The notes: a model not told the origin generated them from the letters alone. A DNA stretch of 64,000 bases from Bacillota bacterium (GCA_012516125.1 JAAYXB010000075.1:5829-69828); one strand, 5' to 3'. Shown: positions 9,518-17,457, counted from the first letter of the stretch. Numbers and translations are program-made.

Positions 9518-9784
9518 ATGGTGAGCCACTTCACCTTGCGCGTTCTCACGCGGCAGAAGACAGTCCTGGAAGCCCGGGCGACTTCGGTCTTCATCCCGGG
9601 CTTCGAAGGGGACTTCCAGGTCCTCGGCAATCATGCACCGGTCGTGTCGGCACTCCGCCCCGGGCGAATCGTTGCAACGTGCAACGGGGAGCAGAAAGAC
9701 GTCGAGGTAACCGGGGGCTTCGTCGTCGTCATGCCCGACCGCGTCGATGTGCTCGTAGACCTCGCCGACCTCACGCCTCGATGA
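9518..9784 (+). CDS. atpC: F-type ATP synthase subunit epsilon, beta-sandwich domain only (88 aa); no C-terminal helical hairpin
   Basis: GGAGGTGA RBS then ATG; MVSHFTLRVLTRQKTVLEARATSVFIPGFEGDFQVLGNHAPVVSALRPGRIVATCNGEQKDVEVTGGFVVVMPDRVDVLVDLADLTPR*. The stop lies inside the 3' end of the convergent GGDEF gene. Confidence 0.8.
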   Translation: MVSHFTLRVLTRQKTVLEARATSVFIPGFEGDFQVLGNHAPVVSALRPGRIVATCNGEQKDVEVTGGFVVVMPDRVDVLVDLADLTPR

Positions 9785-11534
9785 CGCGGTTGCGCCCCTC
9801 CCTCTTTCCACGGTAACATGCCATGTCCGCAAGGTATATGAGGTCCTTCTGGGTTCTGGCGTCGGTGGGATACGTGGCAACCCCCACCGTGACGGTAACG
9901 CGCCCGCTCGGTATCTGGTCCTCGTTGGGGAACGGGTATGCTTCTATTCTCGCCCTGATCTTCTCGGCCACCTTGAGCGCGTGCGCCTTCTGAGCCTCCA
10001 GGAGTATGACCACGAACTCTTCCCCGCCATACCTTGCCACAATGTCGGTTGACCGAACGGACCTCGTGAGGAGCCGCGCCACAGCTTTCAGCGCGGCGTC
10101 GCCTGCCGGATGCCCCAGCACGTCGTTATACTGCTTGAAATCGTCGATGTCGACCATTAGCAGAGATAGATAGCGTCCGTAGCGCTCGCACCTCGCAAGC
10201 TCCTCGGCAAGCCTCTCCTGGAAGTGCCTGTGGTTGAAAAGCCCCGTCACAGAGTCTGTAATGGCAAGCCTCTCGGCTATCCGGTGCAGACGCGTCACTT
10301 CGGCAAGCTGCCTGTCGAGCCTGGCGTTGACCCGCCTGAGCTCCGCCTCGCTCTTCTCGAGCAACTCGTTCTTCGCCTTAAGCTCGCGGTACAGCCTCGC
10401 GTTCTCTATAGCGATGGCCGCCTGCGTGCCGATGGTGCACACGATCCGCACGTGGTCCTCTTCGAAACGCTGGGTGTAGCTCTGTACCGACATCACTCCG
10501 ATGACCCTGTTCTGCACTGAAAGCGGGACCGCGATCACCGATAGCGGCTTATCTCCCAGCATGATGGCCTCGGTAGGCACGTGCTCCATGTCCCTGGACG
10601 AATCTCTTATGAAGAGGGGCTTCCCGGACTTTATCACCCACTCGGTGAGACCCTTCCCGGTGGGATAGGGCCGTGCGAAACTGGCCACGCGCACGCCATG
10701 GTCCACGACCATCTCGAACCTGATCTCGGAAGCCTGTTCGTCAAAGAGGGCCACGAAGAACGACTCGTTGCCGATGATCGCGGCCACCTGCTCGTACATG
10801 ACCTCGAGTAGCGCCGGAAGGTCGAGCACGGAGGTGGTCGCTACCGCCACTTTGTATATGCTCATCATCTCAGCAGCAAACCGGCGGGCCTCCTCGGTCT
10901 GGCGGCGCAGCTCCTCCTCCAGCTGCCTCCTCTGGGTCATGTCACGCACCACGCCCTGAATCGCCACGGGGGCGCCTTCCTTCCGGATGACGCTCGTGTT
11001 GATCTGGCAGTATACGGACTTGCCACCGCATCCGGCCAGCTCCACGTCGAGCATCTGGCAATCACGGGACATGCTGCTCGGCGAAAGGGCCGCGGCAACC
11101 TCATCGTGGCACGTATCGGCCACCACCTCGAAGATCCTCCGGCCCACAAGCTCGTGAGCTCCGCACCCAAGCATCGCCGCAAGGGGCTCGTTCACATACG
11201 TGATCGTGCCGTCGAGGTCGGCGACGAACATCCCGTCGCTTGCGTTCTCAATGAGCTGCCGGTACTTGGCTTCCGATTCAGAGAGGTCCCTGATGGTGGC
11301 CCTCACCTTCCTGCTGAGGGCCCTATTGGCCGCAACCGTGGCGAGGACGACAAAGAGGAGCGCCCCGAGGATCGTCAGAGCCATGAAGAAAGCCATAGAC
11401 ATCTGCTGCTGACTCGCGAAAAGCGGGCCATCGATAGGCATAGCAAAAGCGCTGCCGAAAACGGAAGCAGCGCAGCCTGCGACCGCCCCCGGGCAGGCGA
11501 ATGGACGCACCCATCCTGTGGCTGACCCCGGCAT
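9771..11534 (-). CDS. Membrane-anchored PAS-GAF-GGDEF diguanylate cyclase (GGEEF active site, RxxD I-site present)
   Basis: TM helix (FFMALTILGALLFVVLATV), PAS (ESEAKYRQLIENASDGMFVADLDGTITYVNEPLAAMLGC), GAF, then GGDEF (RSTDIVARYGGEEFVVILL). The ORF-track start is GTG at 11594; I prefer ATG at 11534 because of the GGGGGAGGTGG RBS. The 3' end overlaps atpC convergently by 14 nt. Confidence 0.8.
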   Translation of the reverse strand: MPGSATGWVRPFACPGAVAGCAASVFGSAFAMPIDGPLFASQQQMSMAFFMALTILGALLFVVLATVAANRALSRKVRATIRDLSESEAKYRQLIENASDGMFVADLDGTITYVNEPLAAMLGCGAHELVGRRIFEVVADTCHDEVAAALSPSSMSRDCQMLDVELAGCGGKSVYCQINTSVIRKEGAPVAIQGVVRDMTQRRQLEEELRRQTEEARRFAAEMMSIYKVAVATTSVLDLPALLEVMYEQVAAIIGNESFFVALFDEQASEIRFEMVVDHGVRVASFARPYPTGKGLTEWVIKSGKPLFIRDSSRDMEHVPTEAIMLGDKPLSVIAVPLSVQNRVIGVMSVQSYTQRFEEDHVRIVCTIGTQAAIAIENARLYRELKAKNELLEKSEAELRRVNARLDRQLAEVTRLHRIAERLAITDSVTGLFNHRHFQERLAEELARCERYGRYLSLLMVDIDDFKQYNDVLGHPAGDAALKAVARLLTRSVRSTDIVARYGGEEFVVILLEAQKAHALKVAEKIRARIEAYPFPNEDQIPSGRVTVTVGVATYPTDARTQKDLIYLADMACYRGKREGRNRVIEA

Positions 11535-11595
11535 CACCGCCACCTCCCCCATGGCCCTCAAGGTCCCAAGACCCTTCCGAAGCCGTGCTACCACC

Positions 11596-12645
11596 CTACT
11601 TCGCGGGCATCTTGCCGGTCTGCCTCAGGTAGTCGAAGAAAGACTCCTGGTCAGCGAACACCTTTGTGCAGTGGAATTTCAGGAACGGGCTCACGCGTTC
11701 CTTGAAGATCGCGTAAACCTCCTTGTTGTTCGTAGAGCCGTAGATGATCTCACAGAGCACCCCTGGGGACGTCTTGTCCGTCGGATAGTACACGACCACC
11801 ATGTCGCTCTGGTCGATCAGCATATAGTCGCGGATGACCGTCTGGTCGGCTATCTCGCCCCTCTCTGACGGCGTGATGGCGAACTCCGGACCTATCTCGG
11901 AAAGATTGTAGCTCTTCGACTCGTCCTTGCCCACGCCATACGAAAGCTCTGTGTCCTCCACAGCAAGCGGGTCGAAGACCTCAAAATGCTCCCTCAGCCT
12001 GTCCCGAAACTCCCTCACTTCCTGCATCTTCACAGCGTCGTTGTGCATTAGAGTTATCGGGAAGCTCAAGTATATCTTGGGAACTTCGGGCCTGAACATC
12101 AGGTTGTAAACGGTGCTCGCAGGCTGACCCACCGCCACAACGTAGTGCGGCTTTCGCTGGTAGGACGCCATCATCTTCGTAACGAAGATCTCCTCGTCCC
12201 GCCAGATGAGGATGTCCTTTAGTGACAGCCGTCCCCTCCACACAGGCGACTCATCCAGCCTTTTCGATACGTTGAGGACGCTGTCGATAATCGTCACGTA
12301 AAGGTCGGGCTTGAGTTCGTTCAGATAATGCACGTCAAACGCGGGCATGAGATAATTCTTCCAGCGGAAGCAGCCGTGCGTGGAAATGATGCAGTTCTCG
12401 ACCTTCTCGGCCTTCTTGAGAATCTCCTCAAATACCGCCGCCCGAAGCGACCTCAGCGTGGACGGAGAGAGATCCAGGATCTTCTCAGGGCTCGTGGGGC
12501 TCTCCAGCTCATCCGCTTTCTTGAACATAAGGTCGCCGACGTTGAAGAGGTGGACCTTCTTGCCAAGGGCCTCCGAAGCGGCAAGCGCCCCCTTGAGGTA
12601 CTCGAGCTTTCCTGAGCCGCTGGTGCCTGTGCATATGACCTTCAC
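11596..12645 (-). CDS. Fusion protein: N-terminal P-loop (Walker-A-like GTSGSGK) domain + C-terminal nucleoside 2-deoxyribosyltransferase/Rcl(DNPH1)/LOG-like domain; function unknown
   Basis: GTG start with GAGGAGGGG RBS. MKVICTGTSGSGK..., DLYVTIID (Walker-B-like). C-terminal DMVVVYYPTDKTSPGVLCEIIYGSTNNKEVYAIF fits the NDT-family core D-x-V-V....(S/T)-G-T-x-x-E-x-G-x-A-x-x-x-x-K-P-V pattern. Local G+C about 50-58% against about 62-68% in neighbours. Confidence 0.55.
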   Translation of the reverse strand: MKVICTGTSGSGKLEYLKGALAASEALGKKVHLFNVGDLMFKKADELESPTSPEKILDLSPSTLRSLRAAVFEEILKKAEKVENCIISTHGCFRWKNYLMPAFDVHYLNELKPDLYVTIIDSVLNVSKRLDESPVWRGRLSLKDILIWRDEEIFVTKMMASYQRKPHYVVAVGQPASTVYNLMFRPEVPKIYLSFPITLMHNDAVKMQEVREFRDRLREHFEVFDPLAVEDTELSYGVGKDESKSYNLSEIGPEFAITPSERGEIADQTVIRDYMLIDQSDMVVVYYPTDKTSPGVLCEIIYGSTNNKEVYAIFKERVSPFLKFHCTKVFADQESFFDYLRQTGKMPAK

Positions 12646-12701
12646 CCAAACCCCTCCTCACAAGAACGTTCGACACCCGTTGGTAGACTCCTCCTCCGCT
12701 C

Positions 12702-14048
12702 CTACCCTGCGAACCGCTCCAGCACCAAAGCCACAAACTTGATGCCTTCCAGGAAATCGGACACATTGACGTTCTCGTCCGGCCCGTGCACGCGCGATTC
12801 TGGGTTACCGATGCCAACGCCCACAGCGGGCGTGCCGAACTGGGCTGCAACCTGGTACATCGGGCCCGTGCCTGCGGAGGTCGGGTACACCGAGGGTTCT
12901 TTCCCAAACAATTCCGAACTTGCCTCCCTGATCACCTTCACTATTCGCGAGTTTGGGTCCGTTCTTGCAGGATGTTCAGCGCCAAGCCACGTCACGCGGA
13001 AGTCGCCGTAACCCTTAGCTCTGAGATAGTCCTCGAACTTCCTCGCTATGTCGTCGGGCCGCTGATCTGGCACCAGGCGCATGTCCAGCTTGGCCATGGC
13101 CTTGCTGGGTAAAACGGTCTTCGAGCCAGGCCCCTCATACCCAGCCGAGATGCCGCACACGTTGCACGTGGGCTCGAAGTAGAGCCGCTTCAGGACGTCC
13201 TTGCCGGCGAGGCCCAGCACGAACCGGTCGATGCCGAATAGCTTCGCCAGGCGCTCGGGGCTTGCGGGAAGCTTCTCGATGAGCTCGACGTCCTCCGGGC
13301 CAGGCTGGCGCACGTCGTCGTAGAACCCCGGGATAAGGATCTCCTCCTTCTCGTTCTTGAGAGAGTTCAGCGCCCAGAGGAGCCTCCACACGGGGCTAGG
13401 CACGACGGCGGCAAGGGAAGAGTGCAGGTCGTAGCTGCCTCCTTCCACCTCTATTTCAGCGTAGCAAAGCCCCTTGCAGCCCAGCGTGATCTCAAGCCTG
13501 CCGTCCTCCTCGCGACCTCCCGTTTCCCATATGCACGCGTCGGCACGGAAGGCCTCCGGGTGCTCCTTCGCGTAACGATCAAGGTTGGGACTGCCGATCT
13601 CCTCCTCGCCTTCGGCGACGAACTTCACCGTCACGGGAAGCCTTCCCCTGACCTTGAGAAGCGCCTCGGCTGCCTTCACACGTGCCATGAGATCCCCCTT
13701 GTTGTCAGCGGCGCCCCGCGCGTACAGCTTCCCACCATCGATCTCAGCGCCAAACGGGTCGTGCCGCCACCTGTCGAGAGGCTCCGGCGGCTGGACGTCG
13801 TAATGGTTGTAGAAGAGGACAGTCTTCTCTTGGTCGCCCGGTATCTCCGCCGTGACAAGGGGCGCGGCCCTCTCTATGCGGAAGACTTGCACCTTCGCCC
13901 CCACGGACGAAAACATTCGCTCGACGATATTGGCGGCATCCTCCACCCCATTGCCCTGGGCGGAGATGCTGGGCTGCCGCAGGAAAGCTTGCAGCTCCTT
14001 GACGAACCTGGACGCGTGCCGATCTACATAATCGAAGACATCTTTCAT
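12702..14048 (-). CDS. M20 family metallopeptidase (dipeptidase/ArgE/DapE-like)
   Basis: Internal ATG (MKDVFDYVDRH...) with AAGGT/AGGGGG upstream. HxD...D...E...H metal-binding pattern (FYNHYDVQP, GAADNKG, EGEEEIGS). Confidence 0.8.
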   Translation of the reverse strand: MKDVFDYVDRHASRFVKELQAFLRQPSISAQGNGVEDAANIVERMFSSVGAKVQVFRIERAAPLVTAEIPGDQEKTVLFYNHYDVQPPEPLDRWRHDPFGAEIDGGKLYARGAADNKGDLMARVKAAEALLKVRGRLPVTVKFVAEGEEEIGSPNLDRYAKEHPEAFRADACIWETGGREEDGRLEITLGCKGLCYAEIEVEGGSYDLHSSLAAVVPSPVWRLLWALNSLKNEKEEILIPGFYDDVRQPGPEDVELIEKLPASPERLAKLFGIDRFVLGLAGKDVLKRLYFEPTCNVCGISAGYEGPGSKTVLPSKAMAKLDMRLVPDQRPDDIARKFEDYLRAKGYGDFRVTWLGAEHPARTDPNSRIVKVIREASSELFGKEPSVYPTSAGTGPMYQVAAQFGTPAVGVGIGNPESRVHGPDENVNVSDFLEGIKFVALVLERFAG

Positions 14049-15922
14049 CCGAACCTTGAACCCCCTGACATCGAGTAATGCCTGCGCCTCCGCGCGCCCC
14101 TCGGGGAAACTTCGGCACGGCGGCGAAGCCACCACGCGCCGATCGAAAGCCCCGTGAGAACCGGCGATGACGCACCGATCACCGTCGTCTGAAGCAAGTC
14201 AACGTAATACTTGAACGCCCTGTGAAAGTCGGGCAGGTGCCGGGTGAACCTTGCGCCGTCGCCTGCCACAAACGTGGCAACCTGGAGGACAAGGGCGAAC
14301 ACGATCAGGTAAACGCAGGTCAAGCCCGTAAGAAGCGCGTCAAGGGGCCGCCTGCGCGTCTCCCACGCGAGCCACCCCGAGACCGCTAAGGCAAGCACCC
14401 CGCACAGGGCCGAGTCCGCCATCCTCCAGGTGAAGAACGGCATGACCTCGCTTTCGCTATTGAACATGCTCATGGAGAACGCGATGCCGCGCACGAGCAT
14501 GAGGCCATAAAACGCGGCAAAGTAGGTGGCCGCTCCGATGACAGGGATTCTCATGTTTCGGGCGCTTCCACCCGCGAGGAGCGCAAGCCCCCACGCAAGC
14601 CCGCCGAGGACGACAACGCTCGCAGGTATGCTCACGAGCCTCCGCGCGCCGACAAACTGCCGGCGCGCGCTGGATACCGCCTTCACCATCCGGCTGTCGA
14701 TCTCCAGGGCAATCTCCGTTGCCTCAGTATACTTGCCGTCGTTGTGAAGGAGGGCAGCGCTGGAGACAGGCTCGACGGTGGGAAGCCGCCTTCCGAGCAC
14801 GCGGAGGTACTCTTGGGCGAAAGCTCTCCTGGCCTCGGCCTGCCTTATCGCTCTCTCGGAAACCACGTGCGCGGCCGCGTCAAGCGCCTCGAAGAGGACG
14901 CTGCCCTGCGAGTGCGTGGGAACAGAGGTCCCGAGGAGCGCCGCACAGGTGGGGGCCACGTCCACATGGTGGGCGGGTATCCACGAAATCTCCGCGCTGG
15001 GATGCTCAGGCGTAACTATCCCCGCCCCGGCCGCCACCAGCGGGACTCGAATGACATCCTCCTCCCAGCCTCCGTGCCCGCCCCGTAGCGTGTGCCCGTG
15101 ATCAGATGTCACGATTATGGTGTCGCTGGTGAGATCAAGGTTAGCCAGGACCCTCCCGATCCTCGCGTCCACCTCGGCCGATGCGGCCCCGTAGGCGGCG
15201 CTCGCGGCGCCCGAGGCGTGGCCGGCAGCGTCCACTGACGAGAAATGCACCACGAGGAACCGGGCGTCGCCCCGCTCGATCTCGCCGAGAGCCGCACGAA
15301 GGACCTCGTCGTCGGCCTTCTTGCTCGCAGCAACCTCTGCCGCTGCAGTCGCATCCACGTATGTCGCCCGCGCGACGGATGCGCCGAAAAGAACCTTCCA
15401 ATCCCCGCTCGCCACGAGGGCGGTCTTTACCCCCGCGCGTCGTGCCGCATCGAAGAGGCTGTCCACGCGGACCGCGCCCCTGTACCCGTTGGTGGTCACC
15501 CCGGAGATCTCCGGAGGCGCGCCGGTGAGGAGCGTGGTCCACCCGGGGTAGGAGAGCGACGGCTGGCTTACCAAAAGCGAAAACGCGGCGCCGCGACTTC
15601 CGATGTCTTTCAGCACGGGCATCTCATCGACTCCAGCGAACCCGAGCCCGTCAACTATTACGAGGACCAGTCTCTGAGTGACTCGTGCCGTGGCGTCGCC
15701 AGGCTCAATCGGGAAAGAATACGGGCTCCGGTACCCCACGACGTCTTTCAATCCCAAGGTGGCAAGGTGCCACGAGATGGCTCCCAGGCTTATCATGACG
15801 GCGAAGGCGAGGACAACCACCGTTTCCCTTCCTCCAAGTCCGCGGCCACGAAGTCGCCTCGCCGTTCTCCTACCCGCACCCGACGTACGATCCCTCATCC
15901 TCGTAAGAGCGCCAGGCCCCAT
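14045..15922 (-). CDS. Membrane-anchored ecto-nucleotide pyrophosphatase/phosphodiesterase-like enzyme (alkaline-phosphatase superfamily, type I phosphodiesterase/NPP family) with a C-terminal polytopic membrane domain
   Basis: N-terminal TM helix, then LVIVDGLG, nucleophile region SQPSLSYPGWTTLLTG, HFSSVDAAGHASG (DxxGH), TIIVTSDHGH, followed by about 6 predicted TM helices. The start could instead be GTG at about 15820, which has a GGAGGAAGG RBS. Confidence 0.65.
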   Translation of the reverse strand: MGPGALTRMRDRTSGAGRRTARRLRGRGLGGRETVVVLAFAVMISLGAISWHLATLGLKDVVGYRSPYSFPIEPGDATARVTQRLVLVIVDGLGFAGVDEMPVLKDIGSRGAAFSLLVSQPSLSYPGWTTLLTGAPPEISGVTTNGYRGAVRVDSLFDAARRAGVKTALVASGDWKVLFGASVARATYVDATAAAEVAASKKADDEVLRAALGEIERGDARFLVVHFSSVDAAGHASGAASAAYGAASAEVDARIGRVLANLDLTSDTIIVTSDHGHTLRGGHGGWEEDVIRVPLVAAGAGIVTPEHPSAEISWIPAHHVDVAPTCAALLGTSVPTHSQGSVLFEALDAAAHVVSERAIRQAEARRAFAQEYLRVLGRRLPTVEPVSSAALLHNDGKYTEATEIALEIDSRMVKAVSSARRQFVGARRLVSIPASVVVLGGLAWGLALLAGGSARNMRIPVIGAATYFAAFYGLMLVRGIAFSMSMFNSESEVMPFFTWRMADSALCGVLALAVSGWLAWETRRRPLDALLTGLTCVYLIVFALVLQVATFVAGDGARFTRHLPDFHRAFKYYVDLLQTTVIGASSPVLTGLSIGAWWLRRRAEVSPRGARRRRHYSMSGGSRFG

Positions 15923-15929
15923 CGTCTCT

Positions 15930-16805
15930 TTACTGGGTTTTCGACACACCTGACCTGTCCCCTCCATCTCCGTCCGCGGCAAGCTCCCGCCGCCTCCTGT
16001 CGAGGTCGTCCACGACGCTATCAGGCACAGACACGCCTCCGAGCACGGCAGGCTCGTCGGGCGCGACGCCGTGGAAGTCGCTTCCACCTGTAACGATGAG
16101 GCCGTGCCGCCTGGCGACCTCGATCCACCGCCTGGTGAGTTCAGAATCATGAGCCGGGTAGTATGCCTCGATCCCCTCAAGCCCCGCCTCGATTAGATCC
16201 TCAAGGAGAGCCTCTCCCGCCGTCCTCCCGGGGTGGGCCAGCACGGGCACACCCCTCGCCGCCAGCACCAGCCGGACAGCTTCTGTCGGGGTCAGTCCGT
16301 AATGCTCCACGTACGCAAGGCCTTCTTTCCCAAGGTATTTCTCGAAGTCGCCGTAACGTCGCTCAGGCCTCGCATACCCCAGGTTCACCATGGCGCGGAA
16401 GACCTGGCTTCTTCCCACGAAACCCTCCTTCCCGAGGCTCAAAACGTAAGGCAGGGAGATCTTGATGCCAAGCTTGCTCAGTTTCTCCAGTATCCTCTCA
16501 GCCCTGGCGATCCGTCCCTGCCGCAACATGTGAAGAGTCCCCAGGAACGTTGCCGAGGATGTGTCGACATGGTAGCCGAGGACATGAACCTCGGCTTCCT
16601 CCACGTCGGTCGATAGCTCAACGCCGGGTATGACGCGCACGCCCAACTCCATCCCAGCGAGCACCGCCTCCTGCACACCGTCAACGGTATCATGATCGGT
16701 GAGCGCGATGGTCTTGACGTTTCTATCGAATGCCAGCCGCACAAGTTCCTTCGGAGAGTAGCGTCCATCCGACGCCGTCGAGTGAACGTGCAGGTCAACC
16801 GCCAC
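15930..16805 (-). CDS. PHP-domain metal-dependent phosphoesterase (TrpH/YciV-like)
   Basis: GTG start with GAGGGGGA RBS; MAVDLHVHSTASDGRYSPKELVRLA...GGSDFHG PHP signature. Confidence 0.8.
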   Translation of the reverse strand: MAVDLHVHSTASDGRYSPKELVRLAFDRNVKTIALTDHDTVDGVQEAVLAGMELGVRVIPGVELSTDVEEAEVHVLGYHVDTSSATFLGTLHMLRQGRIARAERILEKLSKLGIKISLPYVLSLGKEGFVGRSQVFRAMVNLGYARPERRYGDFEKYLGKEGLAYVEHYGLTPTEAVRLVLAARGVPVLAHPGRTAGEALLEDLIEAGLEGIEAYYPAHDSELTRRWIEVARRHGLIVTGGSDFHGVAPDEPAVLGGVSVPDSVVDDLDRRRRELAADGDGGDRSGVSKTQ

Positions 16806-17214
16806 TTGGAAATCCCCCTCGCATCCCCTGCAGGAACACAGGAGCCGCCCTTCTTGCGATCCCGTACATGCAATTATTGCCCGCAGATGTCGGTTTATTT
16901 CTCATGCCTGTGGACATAATAGTGGTGCAAAGGTCCCCGCTGGGCCGAGCTAAGACCGCCGTGCGCCTTCTCCTGGGCGCTGCAGGCCCGGAAAGCCTCA
17001 CGGCGATCGAGCGAAAGGTGGCACCTCGCCTTGCATCTGCAACGCTTGTGCCGCCCGAGCGAAGGTCAGCGTGCGGCCTCCCAAGGATCCGTCCGGGCCG
17101 GAAGGCCTTGCCGGGTTCGAAAGAAGTCGCCCCTGGCCGAGCCAAGACTTGCACTGGTCCGAAGGTAGTCTGTGTACGGTTGAAAGATCGTGTATGGTCT
17201 ACCCAGGATCTCTG

Positions 17215-17345
17215 CTGGTCGGTCAAAGGTTGCCTCCAGTTCTGTAATGTACTGCAGCTAGAGGTTGTCCCGGCCGGAAGGTCGTTGCAGCCTCGTTAGG
17301 GACTGGACGCAGCCGGCGAGAAGGTCCGCGAGGACCTTTGCCTTT
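17215..17345 (+). ncRNA. ffs: Probable small (4.5S-type) signal recognition particle RNA
   Basis: Aligns by eye to E. coli 4.5S RNA: CUGU..., the domain IV core GUCCCGGCCGGAAGGUCGUUGCAGCC (consensus GGUCCGGAAGGAAGCAGCC) and GACGCAGCCGG (GACGCGUGUGCCGG). A terminal helix GGUCAAAGG / CCUUUG(C)C closes the molecule. Ends are approximate. Confidence 0.45.
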
Positions 17346-17400
17346 TGTCCTGTTCCCTGTGACTTTGAGACATGCCGTCCCCAACTCCTGAGAGGAAAAT

Positions 17401-17440
17401 GGGTTGCCGGAAGGCAACCCGTGACTCGTCTTGAAAACCC
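17401..17440 (-). terminator. Intrinsic-terminator-like hairpin downstream of hbs; also sits downstream of the putative ffs on the other strand
   Basis: On the minus strand: GGGUUGCC-UUCC-GGCAACCC followed by AUUUUCCUCUC, 18 nt after the hbs stop. Sequence-related to the hairpin repeat family. Confidence 0.5.
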
Positions 17441-17457
17441 CGATTCTATGATATGGA

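Follow-up and report, generated by a model that had tools for sequence, protein, structure and literature searches.

In a 64,000-nt stretch of DNA from a Bacillota bacterium (GCA_012516125.1, JAAYXB010000075.1:5829-69828; hereafter the window), five consecutive genes encode a PHP phosphoesterase, an NPP-like membrane phosphodiesterase, an M20 metallopeptidase/deacylase, a fusion of an archaeal-type adenylate-kinase-like (AdkA-like) domain with a nucleoside 2-deoxyribosyltransferase-like (NDT-like) domain, here called AKNDT, and a PAS-GAF-GGDEF diguanylate cyclase. Our reading, which we hold tentatively and at a little less than even confidence, is that these genes make up an operon that is peculiar to one uncultured Bacillota clade and composite in origin, that they are probably co-transcribed, and that a nucleotide scavenging block was inserted into the operon or lost from it. 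The older layer would consist of a TrpH/RNase AM-type PHP gene followed by a gene for a membrane-bound sensor diguanylate cyclase, downstream of ftsK-rodZ-hup; the NPP-M20-AKNDT block would either have entered the ancestor of two subclades by insertion or have been deleted whole from a third. On this reading, one promoter serves all five genes, which are loosely connected by a nucleotide theme and are not a dedicated machine for the synthesis and degradation of cyclic dinucleotides.

We gathered 80 genomic loci with relatives of AKNDT, 15 from the uncultured Bacillota clade and 65 from Chloroflexota and archaea (the latter being Thermofilaceae, Nitrososphaerota, Brockarchaeota, Bathyarchaeia and one Korarchaeia-like metagenome-assembled genome), and used all five proteins, together with their neighbours, as queries against them. 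The backbone in about 18 related Bacillota genomes was ftsK-rodZ-hup-PHP-...-GGDEF. Every Bacillota AKNDT locus with sufficient flank had the order ftsK-rodZ-hup-PHP-NPP-(M20)-AKNDT-(GGDEF), and the PHP-NPP-AKNDT core was present in all such loci of two subclades, the high-GC clade A (window, L001-L006 and L015) and the low-GC clade B (L007-L014 and L096). Between these two, AKNDT was 74-80% identical, FtsK 63-68% and HU 58-70%. The five-gene order and its tight spacing recurred in about 13 related genomes, comprising clade A, where all five genes are followed by a convergent atp operon, and six clade B loci. Elsewhere in clade B the cluster was reduced. The GGDEF gene was absent from L010, L013 and L014, with PHP-NPP-AKNDT retained, and the M20 gene was absent from L013 and L014. 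The other seven clade B loci (L007-L012 and L096) encoded a 288-aa M20 form lacking the dimerisation domain, the lid having been lost in frame (residues ~190-347 of the window protein; L007 9104-9970, likewise in the other six). The sensory part of the cyclase also differed by clade, with PAS-GAF in A, PAS only in B and GAF only in a third clade, C.

Clade C (L092 and L095) was reached by following the PHP gene. Its order was ftsK-rodZ-hup-PHP-[GAF-GGDEF]-...-DAGK-RimO, with the orthologous GAF-GGDEF gene directly after PHP and no NPP, M20 or AKNDT gene, so that between PHP and GGDEF the three genes NPP-M20-AKNDT are found or missing as a unit. Both loci were slightly farther from clades A and B than these are from each other (FtsK identity 58-59% and 55-57%, compared with the A-B value above). 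We conclude that the cluster is composite, because clade C has the PHP-GGDEF pair without the NPP-M20-AKNDT block, and that the PHP-cyclase adjacency is its oldest layer. Some contigs with this arrangement carry other taxonomic labels: L005 (JBLNCC010000121) is filed as Betaproteobacteria, with Bacillota gene order and an AKNDT 93% identical, and the contigs of P0124, P0248 and P0519 show the same Bacillota gene order under the label Bacteroidota. Binning contamination probably accounts for these labels.

Since ftsK, rodZ, hup, rimO and the lipid kinase gene were equally kept, conservation inside the clade could not be distinguished from simple synteny. Outside the clade, the genes were not linked. 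At the 65 loci from archaea and Chloroflexota, no PHP, NPP-family or GGDEF gene lay within 6 kb of AKNDT, profile search included, and one of these loci had a marginal M20 match. Similarly, no partner gene stood beside the NPP-family member in any of five loci from other phyla, where the neighbours were unrelated. An earlier sequence-only reading of the window had named homologues that are never linked as evidence that would count against its operon; this is the situation outside the clade, and not within the Bacillota clade.

These observations raise the possibility of a mixed operon without a shared pathway, in which insertion history and genome compaction have placed housekeeping genes and unrelated accessory ones behind one promoter. 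We consider this possible, though on balance unlikely. The equal conservation of unrelated neighbours (ftsK, rodZ, hup, DAGK and rimO), the independent gain, truncation and loss of members, the lack of linkage to each other outside the clade and an M20 gene with no evident relation to the rest are all consistent with it. It does not readily account for the NPP and AKNDT genes, which remained adjacent and tightly spaced while NPP identity fell to 32-38%, or for NPP, M20 and AKNDT coming and going together, and the substrates of four of the five products are phosphoesters or nucleotides. The sequence-only reading had called the operon nucleotide-centric. The order and spacing in about 13 genomes and the nucleotide-handling folds of four of the five proteins are in line with that description, and the M20 enzyme falls outside it.

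The gene calls agreed with five co-directional genes on the minus strand, and the five domain assignments made earlier were confirmed by profiles and by structure (Table 1). The gap between PHP and NPP, previously given as 8 nt, measured 7 nt, since ATG 15922 is the first in-frame start past the PHP stop. The other spacings were as reported: a 4-nt overlap of NPP and M20, in which ATG 14048 of M20 overlaps the NPP stop as ATGA, then 56 nt between M20 and AKNDT and 61 nt (about 60 nt in the earlier reading) between AKNDT and the cyclase gene. An alternative GTG start of the cyclase at 11594, which would leave a gap of 1 nt, was rejected because L002-L006 do not conserve the peptide that precedes MPGSATGW but do conserve the ribosome-binding site GGGGGAGGTGG and ATG 11534.

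A simple consensus scan found no terminator between the five genes on the minus strand, again as claimed before. The scan gave 7 matches in total, with 7.2 expected, and its sole minus-strand match in the cluster falls inside the GGDEF open reading frame. The long spacers said to flank the cluster were found on one side. Upstream there are 652 nt (16806-17457), which are not empty and hold a structured RNA candidate on the opposite strand. Downstream, the 3' ends of the cyclase gene and of the convergent atpC gene on the plus strand overlap by 14 nt (9771-9784), and the scan found no terminator on either strand at this junction. The atp operon abuts the cluster in clade A only, and we therefore place a rearrangement breakpoint directly after the cyclase gene. 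At the other end, the intrinsic terminator of hup was invariant across clade A relatives, and an equivalent hairpin was visible in the clade B and C spacers; this terminator is the 5' boundary of the five-gene transcription unit. With co-direction, short gaps (7, -4, 56 and 61 nt), no internal terminator and an order kept in relatives, the five genes look, as far as sequence features can tell, as if they probably form one transcription unit.

Table 1. Genes of the cluster and associated elements (window coordinates)
Feature	Coordinates	Strand	Remarks
Gene 1, PHP phosphoesterase	15930..16805	-	291 aa; GTG start, ribosome-binding site GAGGGGGA upstream
Gene 2, NPP-like membrane phosphodiesterase	14045..15922	-	625 aa
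Gene 3, M20 metallopeptidase/deacylase	12702..14048	-	448 aa
Gene 4, AKNDT (AdkA-like kinase + NDT-like fusion)	11596..12645	-	349 aa
Gene 5, PAS-GAF-GGDEF diguanylate cyclase	9771..11534	-	587 aa counted from ATG 11534
Intrinsic terminator of hup (HU)	17401..17420	-	8-bp GC-rich stem, then ATTTTCCTCT
Candidate structured non-coding RNA	16927..17345	+	~415 nt; outside the operon, between hup and PHP, divergent from the operon

The fourth gene product, AKNDT, combines an archaeal-type adenylate-kinase-like domain (residues ~1-185) with an NDT-like domain (~186-349). Its public record (NLG80211.1) is named 'AAA family ATPase'. We found a full AdkA fold, including the lid, and an NDT fold. The protein scored under the curated cut-offs of both families (43 bits against PRK04040, cut-off 155; 17.6 bits against PF05014, gathering score 28.8). 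Archaeal AdkA (Aeropyrum pernix, 6ln3) and NDT/DNPH1-type N-glycosidases are each comparable with one half of AKNDT, which fuses both; no characterised enzyme has this fused architecture. When the profile of the NDT-like domain was searched against PDB sequences, only chance matches were returned, and the relationship was shown by the fold search alone. The family comprises at least 379 clusters (50% identity, E<=1e-30), nearly all of them two-domain proteins that public records call simply 'AAA family ATPase' or 'adenylate kinase', and a literature search on kinase-NDT fusions found nothing relevant.

Invariant residues of the family were H90, F93, R94, W95, W148, E151 and E152 in the kinase part and Y192, S194, P196, D273, Q279, G295, V296 and E299 in the NDT part. 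E299 lies within a conserved SPGVxxE motif, at what may be the position of the catalytic Glu of NDT/DNPH1 enzymes. The P-loop (residues 7-14) reads GTSGSGKL and thus departs from the canonical GxxGxGK[ST]. In contrast to the canonical AdkA P-loop, the family has G-x-S-G-S-[GD]-[KR], the residue after it never being Ser or Thr. The Lys is found in Bacillota members only, most archaeal and Chloroflexota members having Arg, and some members have Asp one position before the Lys/Arg. This does not exclude kinase activity, because solved methanococcal adenylate kinases also lack the Lys.

A few members carry a further domain. Variants P0362, P0363, P0366, P0376 and P0413 (~600 aa) have an extra N-terminal AAA_17 kinase-like domain, and P0437 (491 aa, a single-member cluster) has a C-terminal NUDIX domain. 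The second kinase or NUDIX domain points to nucleotides as substrates. The family is shared by TACK archaea, Anaerolineae and one Bacillota clade. Its Bacillota sequences fall into a single clade, next to two clades from Chloroflexota and a diverse one from archaea; being monophyletic in an otherwise archaeal and Chloroflexota family, they fit acquisition by transfer.

At 16 Chloroflexota loci (L017, L018, L020, L022-L026, L030, L032, L034, L040, L042, L047, L048 and L077), AKNDT is followed directly by a gene for a PII-like receptor of c-di-AMP (cyclic di-AMP; PF06153, 1.4e-18; receptor just past ~10001-11050). RemA-like, Memo-like and R3H-ATPase genes were also seen near these loci. In B. 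subtilis, tmk lies directly upstream of darA, and in Chloroflexota AKNDT precedes the DarA-like gene; by this analogy, AKNDT may sit in a nucleotide-kinase slot and might conceivably replace thymidylate kinase. One could go further and regard the inserted block as a new nucleotide-processing or nucleotide-sensing module around the AdkA-NDT fusion, tied to cyclic-dinucleotide signalling and setting or reading the pool of nucleoside monophosphates. We give this view only a slim chance.

The product of the first gene belongs to the TrpH/YciV family (RNase AM/pAp phosphatase; Pfam PHP, 1e-11), and more than 7700 of its homologues are named TrpH or PHP. It scored 190.3 bits against the NCBIfam model of 3',5'-nucleoside bisphosphate phosphatase (equivalog cut-off 400) and 154.8 bits against that of RNase RNM (equivalog cut-off 375). 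Because these scores are far under the equivalog cut-offs, we regard the protein as a family member and not as a proven orthologue. The PHP residues H6, H8, D13, H38, D39, E63, H74, R101, H191, D243 and H245 are all present. As in RNase AM/YciV/TrpH and the Cv1693-type phosphatase, the PHP fold and all ligands of the trinuclear metal centre are found, and the protein shares with RNase AM/YciV/TrpH a length of ~290 aa, a single domain and a cytoplasmic location. Enzymes of the RNase AM family cleave pGpG and pAp, and YciV/RNase AM converts pGpG to GMP and can replace Orn (PMC11528712). The residues listed there as required (H38, D39, E63, R101, H194 and H253 in C. violaceum numbering) were present in the window protein. 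In two other Firmicutes examined, Moorella and one more, the PHP gene follows the RNA-turnover genes rny-ymdB, whereas here it adjoins a diguanylate cyclase. By analogy with the characterised enzymes, a TrpH/RNase AM-type PHP protein beside a cyclase would be mechanistically sensible, and this is the only link in the cluster with outside support.

The cyclase matched GGDEF (3.5e-48; PF00990, 163.9 bits), GAF_2 (7.8e-16), PAS (3e-15) and TIGR00254 (181 bits), with the cyclase profile scoring above its cut-off, and is anchored in the membrane by one transmembrane helix. The GGEEF active site and an RxxD I-site, said earlier to be intact, were both found, the latter as RSTD five residues upstream. 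In these motifs and in its strong profile scores, the protein resembles PleD/DgcA-type GGDEF cyclases, and nothing about it is unusual.

The sequence-only reading had gone on to suggest one integrated system, in which the PHP, NPP-like and NDT-like proteins are the dedicated degradation and recycling arm for the product of the cyclase. Several observations agree with such a system. Mammalian ENPP1 hydrolyses cyclic GMP-AMP, and AKNDT stands beside cyclic-dinucleotide genes in two phyla, given the c-di-AMP receptor at the 16 Chloroflexota loci. PHP and GGDEF have stayed together in clades A and C and in the majority of clade B loci, and PHP enzymes of the RNase AM type degrade pGpG (PMC11528712), with the catalytic residues present here. 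However, the coupling of cyclic-dinucleotide synthesis to dedicated turnover was not supported. The GGDEF gene has gone from L010, L013 and L014 while PHP-NPP-AKNDT persists, and L092 and L095 keep PHP-GGDEF without the block. Beyond the clade, GGDEF, PHP and NPP genes were absent near AKNDT and NPP-family relatives never adjoined PHP or GGDEF, as described above. Profile searches found no EAL or HD-GYP domain in the five proteins that could open cyclic di-GMP (c-di-GMP), and an external NPP domain cannot reach c-di-GMP in the cytoplasm. With ftsK, rodZ and hup equally syntenic, adjacency says little. There was also no PADLOC defence-system match: PADLOC gave only a marginal match for PHP (E 3.5e-4, 17 bits) and none for the other four proteins. 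We consider an integrated system of this kind quite improbable.

The second gene encodes an NPP-type protein of the alkaline-phosphatase superfamily, with an N-terminal transmembrane helix, a catalytic domain at residues ~80-350 and a C-terminal bundle of ~5 transmembrane helices. It matched PF01663 above the gathering score and has an NPP-like fold with the nucleophile, the Asn and the metal ligands; its best structural match was Xac NPP from Xanthomonas. Both tails are Arg-rich (+10/-2 at the N-terminus, +9/-1 at the C-terminus), and because of this the topology model places the catalytic domain most likely outside the cytoplasm. The sequence-only reading had placed it outside the cell as well, with one N-terminal and six C-terminal helices; the location is upheld, and the helices are most likely 1 + 5. 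The protein shares with Xanthomonas NPP and ENPP1-7 the P-S-x-[ST]-[FY]-P nucleophile motif (Ser/Thr), the Asn, the D/H metal ligands and the outward-facing catalytic domain. In the sequence alignment only, its Y125 aligns with F91 of Xac NPP. It differs from solved NPPs in that the catalytic domain lies between an N-terminal transmembrane helix and a conserved five-helix C-terminal bundle, an architecture absent there. The C-terminal multi-helix bundle was conserved across the whole NPP-like family, in several phyla. At two non-Bacillota loci (L084 7124-10225 and L086 7700-10859), the NPP-like membrane protein gene adjoins an FeS-assembly-P (SufT-like) gene and one for a large UPF0182 membrane protein, with a trio of polyketide-cyclase, FAD-monooxygenase and methyltransferase genes upstream. 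This setting may be another conserved context of the family.

The third gene encodes a standard M20 enzyme, with above-threshold matches to PF01546 (5.7e-37, 128 bits) and to the dimerisation/lid domain PF07687 (8.5e-13, 48.6 bits), and with 428.6 bits against NCBIfam PRK06446, above the cut-off of 369.

For the composite operon, we propose the following division of labour. The PHP protein would act in the cytoplasm as a 5'-to-3' nanoRNase and pAp phosphatase and clear 5'-phosphorylated di- and oligonucleotides, pGpG included, and the cyclase would produce c-di-GMP when signalled through its PAS and GAF domains. The NPP-M20-AKNDT block would serve as a module that scavenges and recycles, with nucleoside monophosphates at its centre. 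In this module, the ecto-NPP would cut external phosphodiesters, and AKNDT would bind (deoxy)nucleoside monophosphates in the cell and convert them by phosphorylation and/or N-glycosidic cleavage. The M20 enzyme would be an accessory that can be lost.

A number of points weigh against this proposal. A promoter for the five-gene operon was not located, and the cluster has no transporter or 5'-nucleotidase that would link external nucleoside monophosphates to the cytoplasm. The M20 enzyme is ill-suited to a nucleotide theme, and the AKNDT P-loop is atypical, with Arg for Lys in most members, so that kinase activity is putative. The polarity of the change, insertion as opposed to deletion of the block, rests on pairwise identities and not on a rooted tree. 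Finally, the catalytic domain of the NPP-like protein is shorter than that of Xac NPP (245 of 383 residues align), and the family profile has a 17-residue gap where Xac NPP has the segment bearing the base-stacking Tyr174. Because this segment is missing and the C-terminal bundle is embedded in lipid, the sequence suggests that the substrate may not be a nucleotide.

A non-nucleotide substrate would be expected if the NPP-like protein acted on membrane or wall phosphodiesters, such as phospholipid head groups or teichoic-acid-like polymers, in an envelope module with remodelling under the control of c-di-GMP. ENPP6, ENPP7, LtaS, EptA and the GPI ethanolamine-phosphate transferases act on phosphodiesters of the membrane or cell wall. 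Both the missing nucleotide-stacking segment and the family-wide helix bundle would suit such a role, and the backbone holds the envelope genes rodZ, ftsK and bacA, pspC, a DAG-kinase-type lipid kinase gene and a D-amino-acid aminotransferase-like gene. These envelope genes, however, belong to a backbone that also exists without the NPP gene. No gene for lipid or teichoic-acid synthesis lies inside the cluster, and AKNDT and PHP have no evident envelope role. We regard an envelope module as improbable and retain the composite operon with a loose nucleotide theme.

The spacer between hup and PHP, 652 nt in the window, is shorter in clade B (124-322 nt) and in clade C (186-233 nt). In clade A, ~480 nt of it were 80-95% identical, even in L015, whose flanking proteins are 50-75% identical. 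The spacer is not coding, because L015 has 1-nt indels in it. RNAalifold gave -208 kcal/mol for the plus strand and -147 kcal/mol for the minus strand, and 174 cells are G-U pairs that would read as A-C on the opposite strand. The predicted structure has 16 helices with several GNRA-type loops, and 21 of its 164 pairs change on both sides, compared with 7.1±2.2 in shuffles (0 of 500) and 1-6 in slid controls. There are invariant blocks upstream, the internal repeat GGCCGAGCYAAGAC occurs twice, and the 3' end consists of a hairpin with a U-rich tract after it. We considered whether the spacer might hold a c-di-GMP riboswitch or a leader of the operon and rejected this, because the conserved structure is on the plus strand and the operon on the minus strand.

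One copy of this element was found at each of eight loci (the window, L001 5301-5746, L002-L004, L006, L015 and L087 671-1121). Of the matches in a metagenome scan, one was a true copy (99% identical) and four were chance 18-mers, so that the element is confined to clade A and one metagenome contig. No copy was found in a viral scan, and nhmmer detected no diverged copy in clades B and C or elsewhere in the window. Rfam had no family for the spacer when searched to E<=10, nor did its models match anywhere in the window at gathering scores, and a search for tRNA and tmRNA genes was likewise negative. These findings are suggestive of a structured RNA gene of ~415 nt, of which eight closely related copies are known.

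As an operon, the cluster is ordinary: a lineage-specific mix of known enzyme superfamilies whose history can be read from its relatives. Through the membrane-embedded NPP family, the NPP fold is now seen in a polytopic membrane architecture as well. The AdkA-NDT family, which has no name, literature or solved structure and is conserved beyond the level of FtsK between the Bacillota subclades, lends itself well to enzymological work on nucleotide salvage or sanitation. The pairing of PHP and cyclase provides a testable link between diribonucleases of the RNase AM type and the clearance of the c-di-GMP end product in Gram-positive-type lineages.

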